Origin: Myxococcota bacterium
GTDB taxonomy: Bacteria; Myxococcota_A; Polyangia; Polyangiales; Sandaracinaceae
Length of the DNA stretch: 64,000 bases
NCBI GenBank assembly: GCA_036149055.1
Contig: JAYZQJ010000014.1
Location: 64,001 to 128,000, forward strand
Direction of reading: 5' to 3'
In this document: positions 3,362 through 48,513 of the stretch, piece by piece
Numbering within the stretch: the stretch's first letter is position 1
Layout: the number at the start of each line of letters is the position of its first letter
Translations under genes and position numbers: made by a program
The notes under the pieces: model-generated
Told to the model about the DNA's origin: nothing
The model's database searches: none
What the model saw: the letters and a program-made list of their open reading frames with translations, nothing else

Positions 3362-4777
3362 TCACTCGCGCACGGTCTCGGTCGCGCGTCGCAGCTCCCC
3401 GATGGTGCGGTTGTGTGACGAGGTCTCGACGGCGTCCTGCAGCCCCTCGAGCACCCGGGTGAGCGGCTTCTCCGCGTCCTCCCAGGGCAGGGTCGGGTCG
3501 GCGTTGCGGCCGAGCGCGTCGAGCACCGCGGCCACCCGCAGCGAGTCGGGGTCGGACGCGGGCGCGTACAGGGGATCGTACGGCCCCGAGGTGCGCGTCA
3601 GGAGCCCGTGCTGGACGAGGGAGTCGAGCACCTCCCGCAGCGGCTCGACCGCCACCCCCACGTCGCGGGCCAGCTCCCGGAGCCGCTCGCCCTCCCCCGC
3701 CGTCGCGAGCGCGACCATCGCCCGGAGCGCGACCGCCTGCCGCGCCGCGTGGTCGTCGAGCCGACGCCGGGCGAGCTGCCGCAGCGTCGGCGCGTTCTGG
3801 TGCGCGGCCGCGACCTGAGCTCCGAGCAGCACCCACACCCACGAGAGGTGCAGCCAGAGCATGAAGATGGGGAAGGCGCCGAAGCCGGAGTAGAGCGCGT
3901 TGGTGCGGGCGACCCCGATCTGGAAGCGCACGTGCAAGACCTGGAAGAGGTACCAGCCGAGCCCGCCCACCAGCGCGCCGATCAGCGCGGAGCGGCGGCC
4001 CACGGTGGCGCTCGGCAGCAGCACGTAGAGCGGCAGCATGGCCGCGCAGACGAGGAGCGGCGGCACCGCGAAGGCCACCAGGTCGACCAGGATGGCGGCC
4101 GGGGCGATCGCCTCGAACCAGGCCATCAGCGGCTGGCCGTGGCGGGCCGCGGTCAGGGTCGAGGCGAAGGCGAGCAGGATCGGGGTGACGAAGACCACCA
4201 TCAGGTAGGCGGGGATCCGACGGGTCAGCCGGCGCTTGCCCGGGTAGCCCCAGACCGCGTCGAAGGACTCCTCGGCGCCGAGCACCACCCTCGACGCGGT
4301 CACCAGGAGCACGACGAAGCCGATGACCCCGAGACCGAAGACGTCGGTGTCGCTCACCAGGTCGAGCACCCGGTCGAGGTTCGTCCGGAGGATGTGCACC
4401 CCCTCGGGCACGTCCTCCCCCGGGCCGCCGAGCGCGTCGTGCAGGAACGGGCGCACCGTCTCCTTCACCACGCTCTCGTAGAGCCCGACGCCCTTGGCCA
4501 CCGCGAAGACCAGCGCCGCCAGCGGCACCACCGAGAGCAAGGTGAAGAAGGCGAGCGCCGCCGCCCGCATCTGGAGCCGCTCGCGAAAGAAGGCGTCGAC
4601 GGTGACGAAGCCGAGGCGGACCACGGTGAGCAGCCAGCGCCGCGGCCGCGGCAGGGAGCGCTCGTCGACCTCCCAGAGCGTGCGGTAGATCGAGCGGCGC
4701 AGGCGCGTCAGGCGCTTCTCCGCCCGCTTCACCGTCTGCTCGAACCCGCTGACCGCCCTGGGCACGCCAGGGAGCAT
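3362..4777 (-). CDS. YihY/BrkB-family inner-membrane protein with C-terminal HTH (Rrf2-like)
   Basis: AAALAFFTLLSVVPL and YSGFGAFPIFMLWLHLSWVWVLLGA motifs; C-terminal LRELARDVGVAVEPLREVLDSL helix-turn-helix; start codon uncertain. Confidence 0.85.
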   Translation of the reverse strand: MLPGVPRAVSGFEQTVKRAEKRLTRLRRSIYRTLWEVDERSLPRPRRWLLTVVRLGFVTVDAFFRERLQMRAAALAFFTLLSVVPLAALVFAVAKGVGLYESVVKETVRPFLHDALGGPGEDVPEGVHILRTNLDRVLDLVSDTDVFGLGVIGFVVLLVTASRVVLGAEESFDAVWGYPGKRRLTRRIPAYLMVVFVTPILLAFASTLTAARHGQPLMAWFEAIAPAAILVDLVAFAVPPLLVCAAMLPLYVLLPSATVGRRSALIGALVGGLGWYLFQVLHVRFQIGVARTNALYSGFGAFPIFMLWLHLSWVWVLLGAQVAAAHQNAPTLRQLARRRLDDHAARQAVALRAMVALATAGEGERLRELARDVGVAVEPLREVLDSLVQHGLLTRTSGPYDPLYAPASDPDSLRVAAVLDALGRNADPTLPWEDAEKPLTRVLEGLQDAVETSSHNRTIGELRRATETVRE

Positions 4778-4845
4778 ATGCCATCGGGCTCGATTGACAT
4801 CGAGAACGCCAGGACTTACGCCTCCCGGCTGAGGAGAGCAGAAGC

Positions 4846-5100
4846 ATGGTCGAACCGCAGGTGGTGATGGACAAGATCCGTGAGGGGCTCGGCGAGGTGA
4901 CCCACCTCGAGCTGGAGGACCTGACCGGGACCAAGGACCACTACCGGGCGGTCGTCGTGAGCCCCACGTTCGAAGGCAAGAGCCGGATCGAGCAGCACCA
5001 GGCGGTCTACGCCGCGCTGGGCGAGCTGATGGCCGGGCCGGTGCACGCGCTCTCGCTCGCCACGTACACGCCGGACAAGTGGAACGCCCGGGAAAGCTGA
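4846..5100 (+). CDS. bolA: BolA-family protein
   Basis: DHYRAVVVSPTFEGKSRIEQHQAVYAAL...VHALSL; adjacent to monothiol glutaredoxin. Confidence 0.93.
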   Translation: MVEPQVVMDKIREGLGEVTHLELEDLTGTKDHYRAVVVSPTFEGKSRIEQHQAVYAALGELMAGPVHALSLATYTPDKWNARES

Positions 5101-5108
5101 AGGAAGCC

Positions 5109-5432
5109 ATGGACGAAGCCGTCAAGACCCGCATCCAGTCGATCCTCGACGCGCACTCGGTCGTGCTCTTCATGAAGGGCACCCAGCACTTCCCCCAGTG
5201 CGGCTTCAGCCACCGCGCGGTGGAGATCCTCAAGCGCTGCGGCGCCAAGGAGATGCACACCGTCAACGTGCTCGAGGACCCCGAGATCCGTCAGGGCATC
5301 AAGGACTTCGGCAACTGGCCGACGATCCCGCAGCTCTACCTGAAGGGGAAGCTCGTCGGCGGCTCCGACATCCTCATGGAGATGTTCGAGAGCGGCGAGC
5401 TCCAGCCGATGGTCGAGGACGCGCAGAAGTAG
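5109..5432 (+). CDS. grxD: monothiol glutaredoxin Grx4
   Basis: VLFMKGT, PQCGFS active site, WPTIPQLY, GGSDI. Confidence 0.95.
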   Translation: MDEAVKTRIQSILDAHSVVLFMKGTQHFPQCGFSHRAVEILKRCGAKEMHTVNVLEDPEIRQGIKDFGNWPTIPQLYLKGKLVGGSDILMEMFESGELQPMVEDAQK

Positions 5433-7296
5433 CGCGCTCTCGCAGATCGAAGCGCAAGAGGCGCTGCTCGGACTCGATGCCCTTGAGCGCGGCGGTGAAG
5501 CCGCTGCGCGGCACGTCCTCGAGCAGCGCGGCCACCGCCGGCTCGTCCGCGACGTCCTCGGTCACCACGATCTCGCTGGCCGCCGCCTGGGCTTGAAGCC
5601 GGGCGGCCATGTTCACGGTGGTGCCGAAGAAGTCGAGCCGCTCGTTGGCCCGCACCGCCAGGCACGGCCCGGCGTGCACCCCGATCTTCACGCCGAGCTC
5701 GCCGTCCGGGTGGGCCGCGTCGTGGCGCGCGATCATGTCCACCGCGGCGGCCGCGGCGTCGGCGGCCGACGGGAACGACGCCATCACCGCGTCGCCCATG
5801 GTCTTCACGATCGCGCCGCCGTGGGCCGAGACCGCGCCGCCCATCAGCCGGAAGTGCTCCTCGACGATCGCGAACGCGCGCGCGTCGCCCACCCGCTCGT
5901 AGAGCGCGGTCGACCCGACGAGGTCGCTGAAGAGCAGCGCGAGGTGACCGACCCGCAGGTCCACCCCGGAGGCGGGCGCCTCGGTCGCGAAGAGGTCCAC
6001 GAACTCCGGGAAGCTCGCGACCACCGTGCCGAGCACCGCGTCCGCCGCCCACCCGGCGCGCTCGAGCAGCACCGTCGCGTCCCCCGCGCGCGCGTTCTCG
6101 ACCACCCAGCGGGTGATCCCGTCGCTCGCCTCCCCTTCGGGAGAGAGCGTGATCCCGTCGTCGAGCGTGACCCGGAGCGTGGCCGGCGGGCCGGCGAGCT
6201 CCACGTCGGCGCCGCCCTGGGTCCCGAGGGTGCGGGCGTGCAGCGGCCCCGGCGGCAGCTCGACCGCGCGCTCGATCGTCTCGCCCGGCTTCACCCGGAG
6301 CTGCGCCATCACGTGGGGCAGGAACGCGGGGCTCGAGGCGCAGTAGAGCGCGGTCTCGACCGGCCGCACCGCCGGGTTCGAGGGGAAGACGGCCTCGACG
6401 TGCTGGGCGAAGTCGGTGTCGAAGTGGATCTGGCAGGCGTCGCAGTGGGTCTGCTCGCCGAGGCTGTCGAGGCTCTCGACCACGCTCGCGCCGACCCGGC
6501 AGACGGGGCAGTTGATCTGCCAGCGCAGGTCGGTCAGCCCGCTCACGGTGGCGTGCAGGAAGCCCCGCAGCACGTCGCGTCGATCGAGCCCCCAGTGCCG
6601 CGCGAGCTCGAAGGGGCGCATCTGCTGCACCTCCTCGTCGGGCCGCTCGTCGAGGTGTCGGACCAGCCGCTCGACCACCTCCTCGGGGACCGGCGCGCCG
6701 CGCAGCCGGGCCGCTCGGGTCTTCAGCTGCAGGGCGTCCGGCGGGGTGCGCGCGCCGGTCGCCGTCTCCGAGCGCGCGTCTCCGAGCAGCCGCTTCACCC
6801 GGATCGCGGCCGGCTCGTCCGGGTCGTCGACGCCCTTGTCGCGCCAGCCCTCGAGCACCTCCTCAATCGCGTCGAGGTAGCGGGTGAGCCCCACCTTGAA
6901 CTTCCGGCGCTGCACCGGCCCGAGGAAGAGCGCGAACGCGCCGCCGGCGTCGACGTAGGCGCGCGCGGTGATGCGGGTCGCCCCCTCGTGATCCTCGAGC
7001 TCGGCCTCGAAGCCGCCCTCGAGCGCGGGCCCGGCCCGGAAGTCCCGCTGGCCGCGGATGTACCGCCCCTCGATCCACTCGTAGGGCGGCTCGACCCACT
7101 CCAGCTCGACGCCGAGCTCCTTCGCCTTGGCGACCCGGACGAGCTTGCCGTCGTCCTGCGTCTCCCAGCGGTAGCTCGCCGCCGCCAGCCCGAGCGCGCG
7201 GTCGGAGCGGTTGGTGTCGGAGACGATGCCCCACACCAGATCCCGCGGGGCGTCGAAGACCCGCGTCACCTCGCTCTGAAAGCGCTTCGCCGCCAT
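5374..7296 (-). CDS. class III adenylate/guanylate cyclase with N-terminal SRPBCC-like and central Cys-containing (DUF5939-like) domains
   Basis: LLFSDLVGST, VKTMGDAVMA, KIGVHAG, DFFGTTVNMAARL; CPVC...CDAC; N-terminal FDAPRDLVWGIVSD. Confidence 0.88.
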   Translation of the reverse strand: MAAKRFQSEVTRVFDAPRDLVWGIVSDTNRSDRALGLAAASYRWETQDDGKLVRVAKAKELGVELEWVEPPYEWIEGRYIRGQRDFRAGPALEGGFEAELEDHEGATRITARAYVDAGGAFALFLGPVQRRKFKVGLTRYLDAIEEVLEGWRDKGVDDPDEPAAIRVKRLLGDARSETATGARTPPDALQLKTRAARLRGAPVPEEVVERLVRHLDERPDEEVQQMRPFELARHWGLDRRDVLRGFLHATVSGLTDLRWQINCPVCRVGASVVESLDSLGEQTHCDACQIHFDTDFAQHVEAVFPSNPAVRPVETALYCASSPAFLPHVMAQLRVKPGETIERAVELPPGPLHARTLGTQGGADVELAGPPATLRVTLDDGITLSPEGEASDGITRWVVENARAGDATVLLERAGWAADAVLGTVVASFPEFVDLFATEAPASGVDLRVGHLALLFSDLVGSTALYERVGDARAFAIVEEHFRLMGGAVSAHGGAIVKTMGDAVMASFPSAADAAAAAVDMIARHDAAHPDGELGVKIGVHAGPCLAVRANERLDFFGTTVNMAARLQAQAAASEIVVTEDVADEPAVAALLEDVPRSGFTAALKGIESEQRLLRFDLRERATSARPRPSAGARRSRTSP

Positions 7297-39319: not shown

Positions 39320-40225
39320 GTGGGTCGCCTCGTCTCGCTCGCCCTGATGGCCGCGCTCCTGGCTCCGTCGCCGGCCCTCGCCGTGCGCGAAGGCGAGCGA
39401 GCGCCGGGGCTGGACCTCGTCGACGACAACGGCCGCCGCGTCACCTGGCAGCGCTACCGCGGCCGCGTCCTGGTGGTGAGCACCTGGGCCTCGTGGTGCC
39501 ACCCGTGCATGGACGAGCTGCCGTCGCTCCAGCGCCTCTACGCCCGCCACTACCGCCGCGGCCTCCGCGTCCTCGGCGTCAACGTCGACCGCGACGTCGA
39601 CACGATGGAGCGCGCGGCGCGCGAGCTCGGCGTGCGCTTCCCGCAGGTGCACGACCCCGAGCGGCGCTTCGCGCGGCGGTGGGGGGCGCGCACGATCCCG
39701 ATGCTGTGGGTCGTCGACGCGCGGGGCGTCGTGCGGCACGTGCAAGGAGGCTACGAGCCGGGAGACGAGAGGAGGGTCGAGCGGGTGGTGCGGCGGTTGC
39801 TCGGGGCGGAGGAGAGTGAAGGCGACGCCGACGCCCCGGATGAGGCCGAGCCCGAACCCGTATCCGAGCCTGAGTCCGAGTCCGAGTCCGAGTCCGAGTC
39901 CGAGTCCGAGTCCGAGGCCGAGTCCGAGTCCGAAGCCGAGCCCGAAGCCGAGCCCGAAGCCGAGGCCGAGTCCGAGGTCGAGGCCGAGTCCGAGGCCGAG
40001 GCCGAGTCCGAGTCCGAAGCCGAGCCCGAAGCCGAGCCCGTGGCCGAGCCCGTGGCGCCGGTCGGGGGGCCGCGGCCGGTGGCGCCGGCGGGGAGCAACC
40101 GGGCGGGAGGGCTCTGCAGCGCGGGGCGCTCGCCGGGGAGCCGCGGGGCGGCGCTCGCGCTGGTCGCGCTGTTGGGGGCCTGCGGGGTGCGGAGGCGGCG
40201 GAGGTCGCGGCCGTCGAGGGGGTGA
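39320..40225 (+). CDS. TlpA-like redoxin with acidic stalk and MYXO-CTERM-type anchor
   Basis: [10 protein letters not shown] cis-Pro loop, (ES/EA/EP)n linker, GGLCSAG...[17 protein letters not shown]. Confidence 0.85.
39841..40050 (+). repeat. hexamer low-complexity coding repeat (GAGTCC x7 at 39872-39913, plus GAGGCC/GAGCCC variants)
   Basis: Directly visible; encodes [13 protein letters not shown]. Confidence 0.92.
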
Positions 40226-40644: not shown

Positions 40645-41322
40645 TCACCCCTCGAGGCCAGGCTCGCGCGTCGTCTCGATCCAGAGCCGGCGGAGCCGGC
40701 GTGGGCTGCAGTCGCTCAGCGCAGCGCGTCCGTGCAAGATCCGGCGATTGTCGACGAACAGCAGCTCACCTGGCGCGAGCCTGATCTCGAGCGCTCGACG
40801 CTCGGCCTCGCCAAGCGCCGCGCGCAGCGACCGGAGCGCGCGACGCCCTTCGGGAGTCGCATCGACCGGCGCCAGCCAGGGCGCATGGAAGAGCGCCAGG
40901 CAACCGCCGCGGCGCGAGACGACCGGGGTGAGCGTAGCGGGGTCACCGAGCCGGACCATGGCGGGCAGCCTCGTCCGCTCCAGCTGAGCGATCGTCTCGG
41001 CCGAGAGGCGGCCGAGCACCTCGTGACCATCGACCAGCCGCGAGGCCCCGACGTGGTCATCCTGCGCCTCGCATCGCCAGCCGATGAGGTCCGCCCGCGA
41101 GTGATCCGTGTGGACCGGGATGGGGCCGGGGCTCGCGAGGTAGGTACGGCTCCCAGGTCGCACGCGTACGGACGTGTCGCCGACGATCCGTCCGAGATCC
41201 CGCGCAATCGCCAGCAGCTGAGCGTCGGAGTGGTAGCCCCGCAGCCACGCGACCCCGGACGCGCGCACGCCGCGAACGACGTGACGCGCGCCCGGGCAGC
41301 AACGCTCGTTCAGGACTTGCAC
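40645..41322 (-). CDS. TauD/TfdA-family Fe(II)/2-oxoglutarate dioxygenase (short form)
   Basis: HTD facial-triad motif, GASRLVDG, LFVDNRRILHGR, RRLRRLW. Confidence 0.85.
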   Translation of the reverse strand: MQVLNERCCPGARHVVRGVRASGVAWLRGYHSDAQLLAIARDLGRIVGDTSVRVRPGSRTYLASPGPIPVHTDHSRADLIGWRCEAQDDHVGASRLVDGHEVLGRLSAETIAQLERTRLPAMVRLGDPATLTPVVSRRGGCLALFHAPWLAPVDATPEGRRALRSLRAALGEAERRALEIRLAPGELLFVDNRRILHGRAALSDCSPRRLRRLWIETTREPGLEG

Positions 41323-41807
41323 GCGTGCCAGCAGCGGTTCGAGCAGTCGTGCCAGCAGCTCGTGGCGCTCGACGCCTGGTCCGGCATCCGCTCCACGTAG
41401 GGCTCACCGTACTCGAGCTCCCAGCGCCGCGCGAAATCACGGAAGGCCCGCTTCAGCACCGGAAGCTCCCCGGGACCCAGACCAAAGCCCCCGTCGTGGT
41501 CGAAGATCCGGCCGAAGAGGCGCATGCAATCCGCGTAGTACGCGACCGGATGCAGCATGTGCAGGTGCCAGAGCTCGTCGATCTCCAGCGTCGGGGTGGC
41601 GCGCACCCCCGGATGCTTCGCGGCCAGGCTCAGGAACATTTCGTAGCGGCGAGCCTCGAGCACGCGCTTCTCGTGGCTCCAGTCTCGCGGAAACGTCGAT
41701 GAGCGGTAGCTCGCGGCGACGAGATCCACGCCGAGCTCGAGGCCGGCGTCGTCGCGTACCTCCGGATGCGGAGCGGGCGCAGGGCTGACAGAGAGGGTGG
41801 TGTTCAC
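41310..41807 (-). CDS. GRDP-like His-rich domain protein with C-terminal tandem CWHxC motifs
   Basis: RRYEMFLSL...PTLEIDELWHLHMLHPVAYYADC...IFDHD; tail SCWHDCSNRCWHACKS; AAAGG before GTG 41807. Confidence 0.78.
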   Translation of the reverse strand: MNTTLSVSPAPAPHPEVRDDAGLELGVDLVAASYRSSTFPRDWSHEKRVLEARRYEMFLSLAAKHPGVRATPTLEIDELWHLHMLHPVAYYADCMRLFGRIFDHDGGFGLGPGELPVLKRAFRDFARRWELEYGEPYVERMPDQASSATSCWHDCSNRCWHACKS

Positions 41808-41967: not shown

Positions 41968-42489
41968 TCAGAGGCGCGCGTACGCAGCGCCCACCACGTC
42001 CGCGTCGGCGGAGAGCTCTCGACGGAGTTTCTCCCGGGCGGCGGTGAGGTAGCGCTTCACGGTCGCGAGGCTGACCCCGATGGCGGCGGCCACCTCTTCG
42101 AGGGACATGCCCTCACCGTGTCGCAGCTCGAACGCGATCTGGTGGTCGGTGGGCAGCGCCTGGAGACCCCGCACCAGGCGGTTGCGCCCATCGAGTCGAC
42201 TGCTGAGCGAGCGCCCCACGTCCATCGCGGTGTGAACGGTGCTGTCGAATGGCGTGGTCGGACGCTGGCGGTCGTAGAACTTGAGGACCTGAAACCGGGC
42301 AATTCCCCAGAGGTAGGCGCGCTCGCCGTGCGTCGCCCGAGCACGCCCGTCGACGAAGGCGAGCATGGTCGCCTGCACCAGGTCGAGCACGTCGCTGTCG
42401 GGGACCTTGGTGTGGAAGAAGCGGCGCAGCCGCGGCCACTCGTCCCGAATCAGCTGCTCGAGCAGCGCGTCTCGCGTCGTCGTCATCAT
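41968..42489 (-). CDS. ECF RNA polymerase sigma factor
   Basis: Region 2 DLVQATML..YLWGIAR; region 4 GMSLEEVAAAIGVSLATVKRYLTAAREKL. Confidence 0.9.
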   Translation of the reverse strand: MMTTTRDALLEQLIRDEWPRLRRFFHTKVPDSDVLDLVQATMLAFVDGRARATHGERAYLWGIARFQVLKFYDRQRPTTPFDSTVHTAMDVGRSLSSRLDGRNRLVRGLQALPTDHQIAFELRHGEGMSLEEVAAAIGVSLATVKRYLTAAREKLRRELSADADVVGAAYARL

Positions 42490-43823
42490 CGCCTCCGCGC
42501 GTCATGTCCGGCGGGGGCTCCAAAACGGCTCACCGGCGCGATAATTCCCTCGTACCGCGGCGCGGTGAACTGCCCGCTCATTCGGCGCGCCGAGTGGAAG
42601 CGGAGCACGTAGCCCCTCCCGTCCTCGAGCTGGACCGCCAGGCGCACCGGGCCGCCCAGCCCGAAGCTGGCCGCGATGGGCTCGTCCGTACGTGCCACGC
42701 GCCGATAGTGATGCTCGCCGCGAGGCCCCGTGTCGCCCGTGTGCACGAGCGAGACGTCGAACTCGCAATCGCTGCGGTGGGTCAGCGTCGCGGTGTACTG
42801 GCCCCGTGTTCCCACCGGGATCGCCCCGCTGGACCGCTCGACGACCGTCTCGAAGCCCCACTCGCCCGAGATCGGCGCGCAGCGGTGGTTGGCGTAGGCG
42901 GCGCGGGCGTGCGGCCAGGCGAAGATGCCGAGCGCCACCAACGCGACCGCGACGCATCCGAGCCCGGCGCCGCGCGGCTGCGTCGCTCGCAACGCCGAAA
43001 GAAGCGCATTCATGTCGCGGTACCGACGCTTCGCCTTCGGGTGACTCGCCCGACGCAATACCGCCCAGAGCCTCTCCTCGACGCCAGGTGGAGGGTCCCT
43101 TGGCGGCGGCGCCGCCGCCCCGGTGAGCGCCTCGATCAAGGCAATGGCGAACGCGAACTGGTCGCTCTTCGCCGTGGCCCTGCCCTCACGCGCCTCCGGC
43201 GCCAAATACGCGTCGGTCCCGGCGACCTCGGCGACTGGCGCGGCCGCGCTCGACCTCGAAGACAGCGCCGGGATCGCGAAACCGAAATCGATCACCTGCG
43301 GGACGCCGTCCTCCCCGATGAGGACATTGTCGGGCTTGAAGTCCCGATGGACGATCTTGCACGCGTGCGCGGCCGCGAGCCCCGCGCCTGCCTGCAAGAA
43401 CATCTCGACGATGTCCGCTGGCGTACGTCGTCGCTCGCGAACCCAGGCCCGCAGTGTCCCTCCCCCCACGCGCTGCATCGCGAGCACGCGCAATCGGAAG
43501 GCGACGCCGTCGAGCCGCACGTGGACGTCGTCCACATCGAACACACGCACGATGTTGGGGTGCTCGAGCCGAGCGAGTGCGCGAGCCTCGCTGAGCGCGC
43601 CCCCACCTGACGCATCGGTGTATGACAGCTTCAGCGCCACCGCTCGGTCCAGCCGTTCGTCTCGCGCGGCGACCACCAAGCCCGAGGCGCCGCGACCCAG
43701 GAACGACTCGACCCGATACCGGCCGATGGACGGAGAGGGCCGGCCGGGTACGAGCCCGGCTCGGAGCAACTCGGCTCCGAGCGCGGTCTCGAGCTTCGAC
43801 AGGTCTCCCATCACAGTACTCAT
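42486..43823 (-). CDS. membrane Ser/Thr protein kinase
   Basis: LGRGASG, VALK, HRDFKPDN, DFG, GTDAYLAPE, SDQFAF; TM helix plus extracytoplasmic domain; ATGA overlap with sigma gene. Confidence 0.92.
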   Translation of the reverse strand: MSTVMGDLSKLETALGAELLRAGLVPGRPSPSIGRYRVESFLGRGASGLVVAARDERLDRAVALKLSYTDASGGGALSEARALARLEHPNIVRVFDVDDVHVRLDGVAFRLRVLAMQRVGGGTLRAWVRERRRTPADIVEMFLQAGAGLAAAHACKIVHRDFKPDNVLIGEDGVPQVIDFGFAIPALSSRSSAAAPVAEVAGTDAYLAPEAREGRATAKSDQFAFAIALIEALTGAAAPPPRDPPPGVEERLWAVLRRASHPKAKRRYRDMNALLSALRATQPRGAGLGCVAVALVALGIFAWPHARAAYANHRCAPISGEWGFETVVERSSGAIPVGTRGQYTATLTHRSDCEFDVSLVHTGDTGPRGEHHYRRVARTDEPIAASFGLGGPVRLAVQLEDGRGYVLRFHSARRMSGQFTAPRYEGIIAPVSRFGAPAGHDARRR

Positions 43824-43924: not shown

Positions 43925-46399
43925 GTGCGGTTCGGACACGCGCTGTGCCTGGTGGTCCTGACGGCGTGTGGGTCGCCGCCGCCGTCTCCGCCTCACGTGG
44001 ACGCCGCGACTTCTCCCGAGGCGCGCCCCGAGGCGGCCGCGGAGCCGCACGCGTGGTCGGGGGTCGGGTGCACGCGGAGCGGGTGTCACCTCGGGATCGA
44101 GCCGATCCGCGAGCCGCAGACCGAGATGATGCAGCAGATCTTCGCTCGCGGCGCCGAGGTCGGGGACGACGACGGCTGCGTGGTCTGCCACGGCGGGACG
44201 CCCGGCGCGGAGACCGCCGACGAGGCGCACGCCGGCACGCCGGAGGCGCTGGCCGCGGACGGGGGCCCGGACGACTTCTTCGCCGACCCCGCCTCCCCCT
44301 GGGTCAACGGCCGGAGCTGCGGCCCGTGCCACGCCGAGCACGTGCGCGCGCAGTGGACGAGCCTGATGATGACCGAGGCCGGCAAGATCCAGGGCACGGC
44401 CTGGGGCTTCGGCGGGCTCGAGGGCTACGACCACACGTGGGGCAACTACGATCGCGAGGTCGACCCGCACTTGTCGCTCGGCACCGAGGCCTATCGCGCC
44501 TACATGCAGGTCAAGCGCGAGGCGCACCCGAACGTCTTCCCCGACGCGCAGACGCGCCTCCCCGAGGCCCCCACCGCCGAGGAGGCCGCGGCCCACCCCG
44601 AGCGCGCCGCCTTCACCTACCTGCGCGCCGAGTGCCAGCGCTGTCACCTCGGCGTGCGCGGTCGATTCCGGCGCGGCGACTTCCGCGGCATGGGCTGCGG
44701 CGCCTGCCACGTGCCCTACGGCAACGAGGGCCTCTACGAAGGCGGCGACGAGACCATCGACGGCGCCGAGGAGGGTCACCCGCTCGTGCACAGCCTGCAG
44801 GCCACCCGCGACGCGGTCGTGACCGTGCACGGCGAGCGCTACACCGGCATCCCGGTCGAGACCTGCACCACCTGCCACAACCGCGGCAAGCGCATCGGCG
44901 TGAGCTACCAGGGCCTGATGGAGAGCGCCTGGGGATCCCCCTACACCGAGGGTGGCGGCGGGCAGCTCGACCTGCACAGCAAGCACTACATCGCGATGGA
45001 GGCGGACATCCACTTCCAGCGCGGCATGCTCTGCCAGGACTGCCACACGAGCCTCGACGTGCACGGCGACGGGCACCTCGCGGGCACGAACCTCGCGGCG
45101 GTCGAGATCGAGTGCAGCGACTGCCACGGCACGCCCGACGCCTACCCGTGGGAGCTGCCCCTCGGCTGGGGCGACGAGAACGAGCGCGGCGAGGCGGAGG
45201 GCCCGGCGCGCGGCGTCGCCACCGACATCCCCGAGATGTGGCGGCGGGGCGACGTGGGCCCGGCGCAGGACGGCTTCCTGTTGAGCGCGCGCGGCAACCC
45301 GATGCCCGACGTCGTGCGCGACGGCCGCGAGGTGATCGTGCGCACCGCGGGCGGTCGCGACCTCCGACTCCGTCCGCTCCGCGCCATCGCCGACGCGGAC
45401 GCGCTCGAGGCCGACGCCCGCGTCGCGATGGTGCACGTCGACCAGCACGTGCGCACGATGGAGTGCTACGCGTGCCACACGCAGTGGGCGCCGCAGTGCT
45501 ACGGGTGCCACATCGAGATCGACTACTCGGGCGGCAACCGGTCCTTCGACTGGGTGGCCGCCGGGAACCGACATCTCGAGGCGGACCTCCGGACCGCGCC
45601 CGACGAGCGGGACTTCGGCACCTTCCTCGCGGGCGAGGTCACCGAGATGCGCTCCTTCATGCGCTGGGAGGACCCTCCCCTCGGCCTCAACGGCGAGGGC
45701 CGCGTCACCCCGCTCATCCCCGGCTGCCAGACCACGGTCACGGTGATCGGCCCGGACGGCGAGGACGTGATCCGCAACCACATCTTCCGCAGCCCCGCCC
45801 ACACCGAGGGCGCCGGCGAGGAGGGCCAGCTCGGCATCGACATGAGCCCGGTGCACCCGCACACCGTCGGCCCGGCGCGCCCCTGCGAGAGCTGCCACGC
45901 CTCCGATCGCGCCGCGGGCTACGGCATCGGCGGCACGCGCCCCTGGGAGGACGGCGCGGTCGTCGACCTCACCACCGCCGACGGCCGGGTGCTCCCCCGA
46001 TCGGCGCGGCGGCAGATCGAGCCGATCGCGGGCCTGCGCGACTGGAGCGCGGTGGTCACCCGGGACGGCGAGCAGCTCCAGACGGTCGGCCATCACTGGC
46101 GAGGCTCGGGCCCGCTCGACGCGCGGCAGCGCGCCATCCTCGACCGCCGCGGCGTCTGCGTCGGCTGCCACCAGGAGATCCCCGAGGCGAGCCTCGCGGT
46201 CAGCGCCCTGCATCACGTCGCCGAGATGACCGGCCGGCTCCCCGAGACCGCGAGCGCGCACAACGCGTTGATCAACGAGGTGACGCTCACCGCCGCCTGG
46301 GCTCAGGTCCTCGCCGCCTTCGGCGCCGGCGCGCTGCTCGCCTCGGCCCTCCTCTGGTGGCGCCGCCGCCGGCATATGGCACGTAACGCTGACAGCTGA
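43925..46399 (+). CDS. multihaem c-type cytochrome lipoprotein
   Basis: 11 CxxCH motifs plus one CX4CH (CTRSGCH); lipobox LTAC; C-terminal TM helix. Confidence 0.92.
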   Translation: MRFGHALCLVVLTACGSPPPSPPHVDAATSPEARPEAAAEPHAWSGVGCTRSGCHLGIEPIREPQTEMMQQIFARGAEVGDDDGCVVCHGGTPGAETADEAHAGTPEALAADGGPDDFFADPASPWVNGRSCGPCHAEHVRAQWTSLMMTEAGKIQGTAWGFGGLEGYDHTWGNYDREVDPHLSLGTEAYRAYMQVKREAHPNVFPDAQTRLPEAPTAEEAAAHPERAAFTYLRAECQRCHLGVRGRFRRGDFRGMGCGACHVPYGNEGLYEGGDETIDGAEEGHPLVHSLQATRDAVVTVHGERYTGIPVETCTTCHNRGKRIGVSYQGLMESAWGSPYTEGGGGQLDLHSKHYIAMEADIHFQRGMLCQDCHTSLDVHGDGHLAGTNLAAVEIECSDCHGTPDAYPWELPLGWGDENERGEAEGPARGVATDIPEMWRRGDVGPAQDGFLLSARGNPMPDVVRDGREVIVRTAGGRDLRLRPLRAIADADALEADARVAMVHVDQHVRTMECYACHTQWAPQCYGCHIEIDYSGGNRSFDWVAAGNRHLEADLRTAPDERDFGTFLAGEVTEMRSFMRWEDPPLGLNGEGRVTPLIPGCQTTVTVIGPDGEDVIRNHIFRSPAHTEGAGEEGQLGIDMSPVHPHTVGPARPCESCHASDRAAGYGIGGTRPWEDGAVVDLTTADGRVLPRSARRQIEPIAGLRDWSAVVTRDGEQLQTVGHHWRGSGPLDARQRAILDRRGVCVGCHQEIPEASLAVSALHHVAEMTGRLPETASAHNALINEVTLTAAWAQVLAAFGAGALLASALLWWRRRRHMARNADS

Positions 46400-47133: not shown

Positions 47134-47150
47134 GTGAACACCCGTTCATG
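47134..47150 (+). promoter_or_regulatory. putative LexA (SOS) box overlapping promoter
   Basis: TGAAC-ACCC-GTTCA palindrome directly after TTGCGT (-35-like), about 15 bp upstream of ATG 47164. Confidence 0.65.
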
Positions 47151-47163
47151 CTATGCGAGTTGC

Positions 47164-48513
47164 ATGGGGGCATTCATCGATCACGGTCCGTCGGCCGACA
47201 CCTCGCGGCACGAGGCGGACGACACCTTGCGGAGGCTCGGGCGCCTGCGGGCGGCGAGCGACTTCGAGCTCTGTCAGTGGTTCCTCTGCGGCTTCCGGCT
47301 GCGGGTCCACGACCTCTACGGCTTCGCCAGCTTCCGGGAGTACGCCGAGCGCTGGTTCGGCTGCCCGGGCCGCGCGACCGAGGAGCGGGTGCGGGTCGCG
47401 GAGCGGCTCGAGGACCTGCCGAAGCTCAGCGCCGCCTTCGCGGCGGGCGAGCTGGTCTTCTCCGCGGTGCGCGAGCTGACGCGGGTGGCCGACCCGGAGA
47501 CCGAGGCCGAGTGGCTCGAGGTCGCGGACGGCAAGACCGCGTCGCAGATCGAGCGCATGACCTCGGGCAGGCGCCCCGGGGACCGGCCGAGCGAGCCGGC
47601 GCGGCCGGAGCTGCAGCGCAAGCGGGTGACGCTGAACCTCTCGCCCTCGGCCTACGCGCTGCTGCGGCAGGCGCGCGACGTACTACGCAAGGAGAGCGGC
47701 GGCGCCCACCTCGACGACGACGCGTTCGTGGAGCTGCTCGCGTCGGGGGCGCTCTCCGGCGGGGGCGAGGCCGACGCGTCGCGGAGTCGGCACCAGATCG
47801 CGCTGACGGTGTGCGAGTGCTGCAAGGCCGCCACCCAGGACGCCAACGGGGAGCAGGTGCCGGTCGGCCCCGAGGTGGTCGCGCGGGCCGAGTGCGACGC
47901 GCAGATCATCGGCCGCGTCGACGGGGCGGGCGACTACGAGCGCGCGAGCCAGGTGATCCCGCCGGCGGTGCGCCGCGCGGTCGTGCGCCGCCACCACGGG
48001 GTCTGCGCGGTGCCCGGCTGCCGGCACACGAGCTGCGACGTGCACCACTGCGACCCGAAGTCGGAGGGCGGCGACCACGATCCCGAGCGGCTGATCTTCC
48101 TCTGCGGGACGCACCACGGGCTCGTCCACGACGGCAAGCTGGTGGTCCGCGGCACCTGGTCCGAGGGCTTCGGCTTCGAGCACGCGGATGGGACCGCGTA
48201 CGGCTCGCCGAAGGTGGAGCCGAAGAAGGTCCGCGTGCTGGCCGAGGTGTTCCAGATGCTCCGGGCGCTGAGCTTCCGGGAGAAGGAGGCCCGCCGGCTG
48301 GTGGACCAGGCGCGCCCTCACGTGGGGGCCGAGACGACGGCCGAGCAGGCGCTGCGGATCGCGCTCCGGTCGGTCCCGCTCGCCGGCGGGGTGAGGGAGC
48401 CGACAGCCCGATACGGCGAGGGGTGGAGCCAGAGAACAGCCCCCACGTGGGGGTTCGTCCGGGTCGGTGAGGGCGCGGCGCGCACGGGAGCGACGGCGTA
48501 CGCGGTGGGCTGA
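47164..48513 (+). CDS. DUF222/13E12-like HNH endonuclease with RuvA-C-like tail
   Basis: CAVPGC..DVHH..GGDHDPERLIFLCGTHHGLVH; YGFASFREYAER; LPKLSAAFAAGEL; LRALSFREKEARR. Confidence 0.85.
   Translation: MGAFIDHGPSADTSRHEADDTLRRLGRLRAASDFELCQWFLCGFRLRVHDLYGFASFREYAERWFGCPGRATEERVRVAERLEDLPKLSAAFAAGELVFSAVRELTRVADPETEAEWLEVADGKTASQIERMTSGRRPGDRPSEPARPELQRKRVTLNLSPSAYALLRQARDVLRKESGGAHLDDDAFVELLASGALSGGGEADASRSRHQIALTVCECCKAATQDANGEQVPVGPEVVARAECDAQIIGRVDGAGDYERASQVIPPAVRRAVVRRHHGVCAVPGCRHTSCDVHHCDPKSEGGDHDPERLIFLCGTHHGLVHDGKLVVRGTWSEGFGFEHADGTAYGSPKVEPKKVRVLAEVFQMLRALSFREKEARRLVDQARPHVGAETTAEQALRIALRSVPLAGGVREPTARYGEGWSQRTAPTWGFVRVGEGAARTGATAYAVG

Follow-up and report, generated by a model that had tools for sequence, protein, structure and literature searches.

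Borosins and the BURP-domain burpitides of plants join a folded domain to its substrate peptide, carry multi-core repeats and occur in fused and split forms. Repeats, leader fusions and fused or split arrangements are typical of RiPP precursors and of self-processing enzymes such as borosins and BURP cyclases. The oxygenases AsnO, clavaminate synthase (CAS), TmpA and VioC act on small molecules, and FIH beta-hydroxylates Asn, Asp and His. In plants, GRDP genes have been connected with growth, stress tolerance and seed size. The literature on their domain, DUF1399, mostly concerns plant phenotypes or omics, and no molecular activity was found in its titles and abstract openings. Fe/2-oxoglutarate (2OG) beta-hydroxylation of Asp in a RiPP precursor is described for SmaO and CinX, and SmaO requires a Gly-flanked Asp in a double-glycine-leader precursor of a graspetide cluster (PMC12186529, accessible part). 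C-terminal Cys segments have been proposed as substrates of iron enzymes for Cys-tailed TIGR04222 proteins and for MNIO (DUF692) precursors, e.g. bufferins (PMC12452194, accessible part).

The locus described here lies in a stretch of 64,000 nucleotides from a Myxococcota bacterium of the Sandaracinaceae (contig JAYZQJ010000014.1), which we call the window, and comprises a gene for a GRDP-like protein with a Cys-rich tail and a gene for a TauD-type oxygenase. The Atlas neighbours by features and by structure are PF07173 GRDP-like and PF27765 UCP032817-like; PF07173 (DUF1399; plant AtGRDP1/2) and PF27765 have in common with the window protein the domain with its D-x-x-W-H-x-H motif. Unlike plant GRDPs, which are long and have a Gly-rich C-terminus, the window protein is a single domain of 165 aa with a CWHxC tail, tied to an oxygenase and devoid of a Gly-rich end.

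The GRDP family is similar to borosins and burpitides in its domain-peptide fusions, its repeats and its fused and split forms, but it differs in its unsolved fold, its Cys-centred cores and the dedicated TauD partner. The SAM-dependent N-methyltransferase domain of borosins is absent, GRDP-like alone being found in Pfam at E up to 1, and no Pfam match to the BURP domain was obtained at the same threshold. TIGR04222 and MNIO proteins likewise combine a large protein with a C-terminal Cys segment; neither profile matches any of the eight window proteins scanned (both proteins and six neighbours), and the accessible text of PMC12452194 nowhere mentions GRDP, glycine-rich, TauD or dioxygenase. 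The RiPP Asp/Asn beta-hydroxylases SmaO, CinX and YhhC also pair an Fe(II)/2OG enzyme with a gene-encoded Asp/Asn/His peptide (PMC12186529, accessible part), whereas compared with SmaO the window enzyme is TauD/CAS-like, sits in a two-gene cluster and faces a tail in which D is not invariant. With AsnO, CAS, TmpA and VioC the enzyme shares the fold and the HxD...H triad; however, these have 308-377 aa against its 225 aa, and it belongs to a separate clade with a protein partner. By the domain tests the unit is not a borosin, a burpitide or a TIGR04222/MNIO system, and it may work like a fused-precursor RiPP. No literature on the pair or on a GRDP activity was found in the openly accessible texts searched, PMC12710340 included.

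The two-gene unit and its surroundings

Both genes of the pair are intact. The features are as follows, in window coordinates, with the type of evidence in brackets.

40645..41322, minus strand: TauD/TfdA-family Fe(II)/2OG oxygenase gene, 225 aa (ORF, Pfam, profile)
41310..41807, minus strand: GRDP-like (PF07173/DUF1399) Cys-tail protein gene, 165 aa, GTG start (ORF, Pfam)
41397..41726, minus strand: GRDP-like core, residues 28-137, putative metal or catalytic site (residues conserved family-wide)
41358..41396, minus strand: variable linker, residues 138-150 (alignment, mean column conservation 0.35)
41319..41357, minus strand: tail C-W-H-D-C-x-x-R-C-W-H-A-C, residues 151-163, candidate core peptide (mean column conservation 0.90)
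41324..41359, no strand: two exact 12-bp copies encoding the two CWH units, at 41324-41335 and 41348-41359 (repeat count)
41968..42489, minus strand: ECF-type sigma factor gene, upstream of the pair (Pfam)
42486..43823, minus strand: Ser/Thr kinase gene, overlapping the ECF gene by 4 bp (Pfam)

The 165-aa protein, with nine His and five Cys, matches PF07173 at 32.9 bits against the Pfam cut-off of 22.7, and the 225-aa protein matches PF02668 (TauD) at 64.8 bits against 27. What the first-pass annotation had read from the letters is found in the DNA: the translation contains IDELWHLHMLH...FDHD, the linker QASSATS and the end CWHDC-SNR-CWHAC-KS-stop; there are exactly two copies in the window of the duplicated unit, the 12-mer cgtgccagcagc, one at 41324 and one at 41348, giving a period of 24 bp; and the dioxygenase neighbour of 225 aa contains HTD and DNRRILHGR and overlaps the GRDP-like gene by 13 bp.

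The source genome has a single PF07173 match, and in the core tree the closest relatives of the window protein are Polyangiaceae/Myxococcota records. The unit is rare and patchy: the 165-aa protein is matched in 10 of 301 genomes of the phylum, and PF07173 was not found in the 24 searched genomes of the same family. In a genome of the same genus (G301) the flanks match, with other cargo between about 39,800 and 46,500. The gene at 43925-46399, within the same variable region, encodes an 824-aa multihaem cytochrome c that is partly ExtM-like and has no match at this site in G301. The DUF222/HNH protein gene at 47134-48513 is a mobile element with at least seven close copies in G301 (84-87% DNA identity). 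At about 39840-40055 a thioredoxin-like protein carries a Glu-Ser/Glu-Pro/Glu-Ala low-complexity repeat, look-alikes of which occur at many sites of related genomes.

The order kinase-ECF-GRDP-TauD recurs in two other loci (L013 and L096). The ECF sigma factor is likely a regulator at this locus, accessory to the unit rather than a core part of it, and the kinase belongs to the same accessory module. A sigma-54-like promoter stands upstream of the GRDP gene in 1 of 84 loci; neither this type nor a sigma-70-like promoter was found in the window, and the single terminator-like site lies inside the gene, at a frequency expected by chance. One seawater metatranscriptome contains contigs (247 and 217 nt, depth 3-5) that match the two genes exactly; the neighbours are covered as well and the signal may come from DNA, so it does not demonstrate transcription.

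Third genes near the pair occur in no more than 9 of 90 clusters, the commonest being a sigma-54 activator and kinases; no exporter or protease recurs across the 90 clusters scanned, and no substrate-supplying or uptake gene recurs near the pair. MFS/MATE-like genes flank other GRDP subgroups. Since no third gene is recurrent, the unit consists of two genes, without a conserved exporter or protease; either of these may lie elsewhere. The two proteins and the fusion of both match none of the PADLOC families of anti-phage defence (library dated 2023) at E up to 1, and PHROGs and phage records gave no match.

The tail and the oxygenase are kept or lost together

The first-pass annotation had proposed to score TauD adjacency and tail conservation across genomes. 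In a genome scan seeded from core motifs only, with the best 80 of 97 loci kept, the oxygenase adjoins the CWH-tail gene in 52 of 53 loci and an other-tail gene in none of 27; kin are not independent in these linkage counts, and four non-CWH loci have less than 900 bases on one side. By record label the oxygenase-linked genome loci belong to Myxococcota (17), Pseudomonadota (17), Planctomycetota (7), archaea (7) and two candidate phyla, with two unlabelled. A metagenome scan was seeded partly from the tail. Among 167 classed loci, in which the window's own three and two non-matching ones are left out and some contigs are present twice, the oxygenase accompanies 132 of the 136 CWH-type loci (86 in tandem, 35 divergent, 7 convergent and 4 fused) and none of the other-tail loci (0/29). 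Three of the four oxygenase-free CWH loci lie on contigs that end at most 200 bases upstream, where the archaeal arrangement would put the oxygenase; L093 is a genuine exception, with the tail and no oxygenase within its 3.7-kb contig. Two tails are hybrid: the one that keeps the second CWHAC has the oxygenase, and the one that keeps the first CWH only does not. Clustering of the 161 full-core loci at 80% core identity leaves the oxygenase in 65 of 66 CWH clusters, none of 22 other-tail clusters and one of the two hybrids.

The reciprocal search used an oxygenase profile of 57 partner rows cut from open frames, so that some N-termini overrun the true start. In 401 genomes of the phylum this profile, built from linked copies of which several come from genomes counted here, gives nine matches at 212-260 bits in eight genomes, the next best reaching 72. 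In eight of the nine a CWH-tail gene is adjacent or fused; the ninth is an orphan in a genome (G269) whose GRDP gene is without the tail; the orphan (L209, at a contig end) and the tail-less gene (L004, on another contig) each stand behind a sigma-54-type activator, and they are possibly a decaying unit.

In 151 genomes of a marine archaeal order both genes are found in the same four, divergent and about 40 bp apart, and six other genomes have a different GRDP subfamily and no such oxygenase. In this second subfamily (L218-L221, four fetched of the six matching genomes) the GRDP-like protein has a hydrophobic C-terminus and no CWH tail, and its gene is followed by a longer one with a hydrophobic N-terminus. 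Among 251 searched genomes from a planctomycete class, the centre genome alone gave a match.

In the fused form the same tail sits on a GRDP core from a remote subfamily, which has 37% identity over 110 aa and forms its own branch (support 96-100) in a quick tree built on 114 columns. The tail thus follows the oxygenase rather than the ancestry of the core. Core and oxygenase co-diverge weakly (Spearman 0.22 over 56 pairs, reached in 0 of 999 shuffles, kin not being independent), and a search for longer fusions returned one match among 7,998 scored candidates, which is weak evidence.

Retention or loss of the tail goes with that of this oxygenase subfamily, and the two proteins are almost certainly coupled in function. 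A co-encoded candidate modifying enzyme that co-varies with the peptide, as in RiPP systems, is present here, in the genome scan as well as in four of four archaeal genomes.

The tail is a conserved protein motif

The homologue search gave 213 hits, and the tail was counted in the best 120, a sample biased to tailed proteins because the tail contributes to the search score. All 119 non-self homologues keep the spacing C-x3-C-x3-C-x3-C and 117 of them the strict CWHxCxxxCWHxC. In a 49-row alignment column conservation is 0.90 in the tail, 0.82 in the His/Asp region and 0.35 in the linker; the tail is the best-conserved part of the GRDP-like protein. It often ends only 2-4 residues from the C-terminus.

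Among 66 cluster representatives the tail codons at Cys, His, Arg and Ala positions vary freely by synonyms (TGC 55 and TGT 11 at Cys1, CAC 41 and CAT 25 at His3, five Arg codons). Given this synonymous variation, selection acts on the protein, and the tail reads as a 13-residue C-x3-C-x3-C-x3-C motif with a conserved Arg, not as a recent DNA duplication. A lanthipeptide match on the tail (E 0.056) is weak and was discarded as an effect of Cys/Ser/Thr composition.

Residues 10-11 of the 133 oxygenase-linked four-Cys tails are WH (96), WN (21), HN (15) or HH (1); the second unit thus has W or H followed by H or N in all 133, and 131 have D or N at position 4. The seven oxygenase-free non-CWH four-Cys tails have neither W/H nor H/N in the second unit.

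The GRDP-like core and the wider family

The AlphaFold2 model of the 165-aa protein (mean pLDDT 84) has a helical core and a low-confidence tail; the tail is below 50, and fold searches are blind to a Cys-lined helical bundle of the copper-storage or metallothionein-like kind. Against the PDB, Foldseek gave no match at E up to 0.001 and the best Z in VIA was 4.1, which does not prove a new fold. In BFVD only giant-virus GRDP-like or uncharacterised models matched. Since no solved relative was found by sequence search, the catalytic role of the core is proposed from its conserved residues.

A family profile search of 1.84 billion representatives (50% identity clusters) gave 9,406 matches at E up to 0.001, and the comparison is drawn from 150 of these. 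In the 75 short members and in the 73 long ones alike, at least 92% retain Y55, P72, D77, W80, H81, H83, P87, Y90, D93, G99 and H104, a set that includes three His, two Asp and two Tyr, all near-invariant. Of the short representatives, 60 have a tail, which contains Cys in 58 of them (5.8% of the tail against 1.3% of the core), and 15 carry repeated Cys-centred 5-mers in 2-7 copies. The first tail Cys follows D77 by 64-88 residues in 54 of 58 short members, and many tails of the family have a single Cys per repeat. One protein (P0171) combines, in this order, a GRDP domain, an NHLP-type leader (NHase_alpha, E 6e-10) and a Cys-Cys peptide.

Split forms also occur. In three Bacillus loci and on one plasmid each of Halomonas and Macrococcoides, the GRDP domain has no tail, and separate Cys mini-ORFs and transporters are encoded nearby. 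In the Bacillus altitudinis group (L089-L091, about 4582-6375) a 58-aa mini-ORF and an MFS transporter precede the tail-less gene; the mini-ORF has two near-identical repeats around an RTCY motif, and fused Bacillota tails also have TCY. On the Halomonas plasmid (NZ_CP130702.1; L223, 3056-6775) luxR, an AHL synthase, a 42-aa one-Cys peptide, the tail-less gene and a weakly MATE-like transporter form a candidate quorum-controlled peptide cluster. On the Macrococcoides plasmid (NZ_CP080016.1; L222, about 2190-2838) an unannotated 21-codon one-Cys ORF with a GGAGG site stands just upstream of the tail-less gene, which is divergent from MFS and GNAT genes. In four other loci (L077, L078, L080, L082) the tail is I/V-I-C-A-D-E-acidic, in an operon with a semialdehyde dehydrogenase, a PhyH dioxygenase, a protein of no assigned function and an Ldh_2 enzyme.

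Taken over the wider family, the sequences suggest that the tail is a substrate peptide.

The oxygenase

H71, D73, H197 and R208 are invariant in the 57 rows. We take the first three to be the HxD...H iron triad and R208 to be the 2OG-binding Arg; with all four invariant the oxygenase is probably active. The partner oxygenases form one clade, with SH-aLRT 95 against five outgroup rows in a quick tree. The model (pLDDT 94) has its top structural matches in AsnO, clavaminate synthase, TmpA and VioC, with E 9e-14 for AsnO, TM by query of 0.74-0.77 and at most 24% identity to the listed hydroxylases, and with 225 aa it is shorter than every listed structural match (246-386 aa). The small-molecule habit of these closest structures is the main point against a peptide substrate. 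Prediction of the complex of the oxygenase, the GRDP-tail protein and Fe scored 0.00 in two runs with no control folded, and is given no weight in either direction.

Proposed mechanism

We suggest, as the best reading of the sequences, that the pair is a minimal RiPP-type peptide-modification unit: the tail would be the substrate peptide, the GRDP core would act on the tail Cys in cis, the oxygenase would hydroxylate His/Asn/Asp, and the product would be intracellular. We hold this scheme with slightly more than even confidence.

Step 1: With a metal bound at its His/Asp/Tyr site, the GRDP core would act in cis on the Cys residues of the tail, which the variable linker would bring within reach of the core. 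The first Cys would be the family-wide target site, and the reaction might be an oxidative cross-link or the formation of a heterocycle.

Step 2: The oxygenase would recognise the C-[W/H]-[H/N]-x-C unit and oxidise it with O2 and 2-oxoglutarate. In the simplest form this would be a beta-hydroxylation at the His/Asn (or Asp/Asn) position. Since 2OG enzymes beta-hydroxylate His, Asn and Asp and the tail has W/H followed by H/N, our guess is that the second unit is beta-hydroxylated.

Step 3: Because the unit contains neither an exporter nor a protease, the product would probably remain inside the cell, either as the modified protein tail or as a peptide freed by housekeeping proteases, and it is possibly a metal ligand.

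The first-pass annotation had taken the tail for a core peptide or metal clamp modified in cis by the His-rich domain or in trans by the dioxygenase. The two genomic findings that would have refuted its idea did not turn up, since homologues retain the tail and remain adjacent to the dioxygenase. This idea is borne out in part: multi-repeat tails, the NHLP-leader fusion and split mini-genes speak for it, and the lack of a conserved exporter or protease speaks against it. We also note that a tail as conserved as an active site and often close to the C-terminus fits a functional protein motif equally well.

In another reading the tail is a permanent metal-binding motif, with four Cys at i,i+4 on one helix face binding Cu(I) or Zn together with His; the protein would buffer or sense the metal, and the oxygenase would only tune it or be regulated. 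The invariant Cys spacing, which presumably resembles the Cys patterns of copper-storage proteins, argues for such a clamp, as do its survival in oxygenase-free relatives with Arg/Lys-rich tails and the failure to find export machinery near the pair. However, the one Cys per repeat, or per mini-ORF beside an exporter, in many family tails would make a poor clamp, 36 of the 133 linked tails have N in place of H in their second unit, no metal-storage Pfam match appears at E up to 1, and the tracking of W/H/N with the oxygenase is left unexplained. We consider this reading unlikely.

The oxygenase might instead act on a small metabolite, and the GRDP protein would be a second enzyme, or a helper whose tail gives iron or electrons or closes the active site. 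The fold nearest to free-amino-acid hydroxylases fits this, the single-chain fusion in four genomes would suit a two-step enzyme, and the part missing from the short oxygenase could come in trans. A short and possibly open enzyme would, however, equally suit a peptide; substrate-supplying or uptake genes do not recur, and most other family members keep a Cys tail without the oxygenase, often with precursor-like repeats, which makes the small-metabolite reading improbable.

Another possibility leaves the oxygenase as sole catalyst; the GRDP core would then only present the tail, as a long folded leader of the NHLP or Nif11 kind. The succession of core, variable linker and Cys tail is the layout of a long-leader precursor, and other enzymes stand near other subgroups: a methyltransferase at L084, a B12-binding protein at L009 and the PhyH operon of L077, L078, L080 and L082. 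A leader would, however, leave unaccounted for the near-invariant His, Asp and Tyr of short and long members and the tail-less domains retained next to separate peptides; P0171 has a real NHLP leader besides its GRDP domain, and at many other-tail loci the scanned neighbours include no recognisable modifying enzyme. We regard a mere leader as quite improbable. Lastly, that the tandem unit is a chance or DNA-level repeat (e.g. promoter-like TGGCAC words) beside an incidental neighbour can be dismissed: the word TGGCAC, which codes for Trp-His, does stand once immediately upstream of the G269 orphan oxygenase, but the reading is refuted by the synonymous codon variation and by the retention of the tail in divergent, convergent and fused arrangements.

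Significance

The two-gene unit is real, tightly coupled and undescribed in the texts searched, and it is best read as a RiPP-like variant built on an uncharacterised domain. The fixed 13-residue tail and its near-constant oxygenase partner in scattered bacteria and marine archaea suggest, as far as sequences can tell, an undescribed modification of a gene-encoded peptide. More broadly, and with a probability that we put somewhat short of even, the GRDP-like/DUF1399 domain would be a self-processing metalloenzyme of unsolved fold that converts Cys residues in its own tail or in a mini-peptide encoded next to it. It would define a new ribosomal-peptide class (9,406 clusters at 50% identity), of which the two-gene unit would be one branch, reaching marine archaea, with the oxygenase decorating Trp/His/Asn; the chemistry of plant GRDPs would be the same.

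The unit makes the molecular function of a very large family directly testable: the material is a pair of short soluble proteins or their natural fusion, and the read-out is 13 residues long. If the proposal is true, it would reveal a new peptide-modifying enzyme family without a solved fold, a TauD-type enzyme with a protein tail as its substrate and, for uncultured marine archaea, a pathway of the RiPP-like type, and it would give the first biochemical lead for the GRDP genes of plants.
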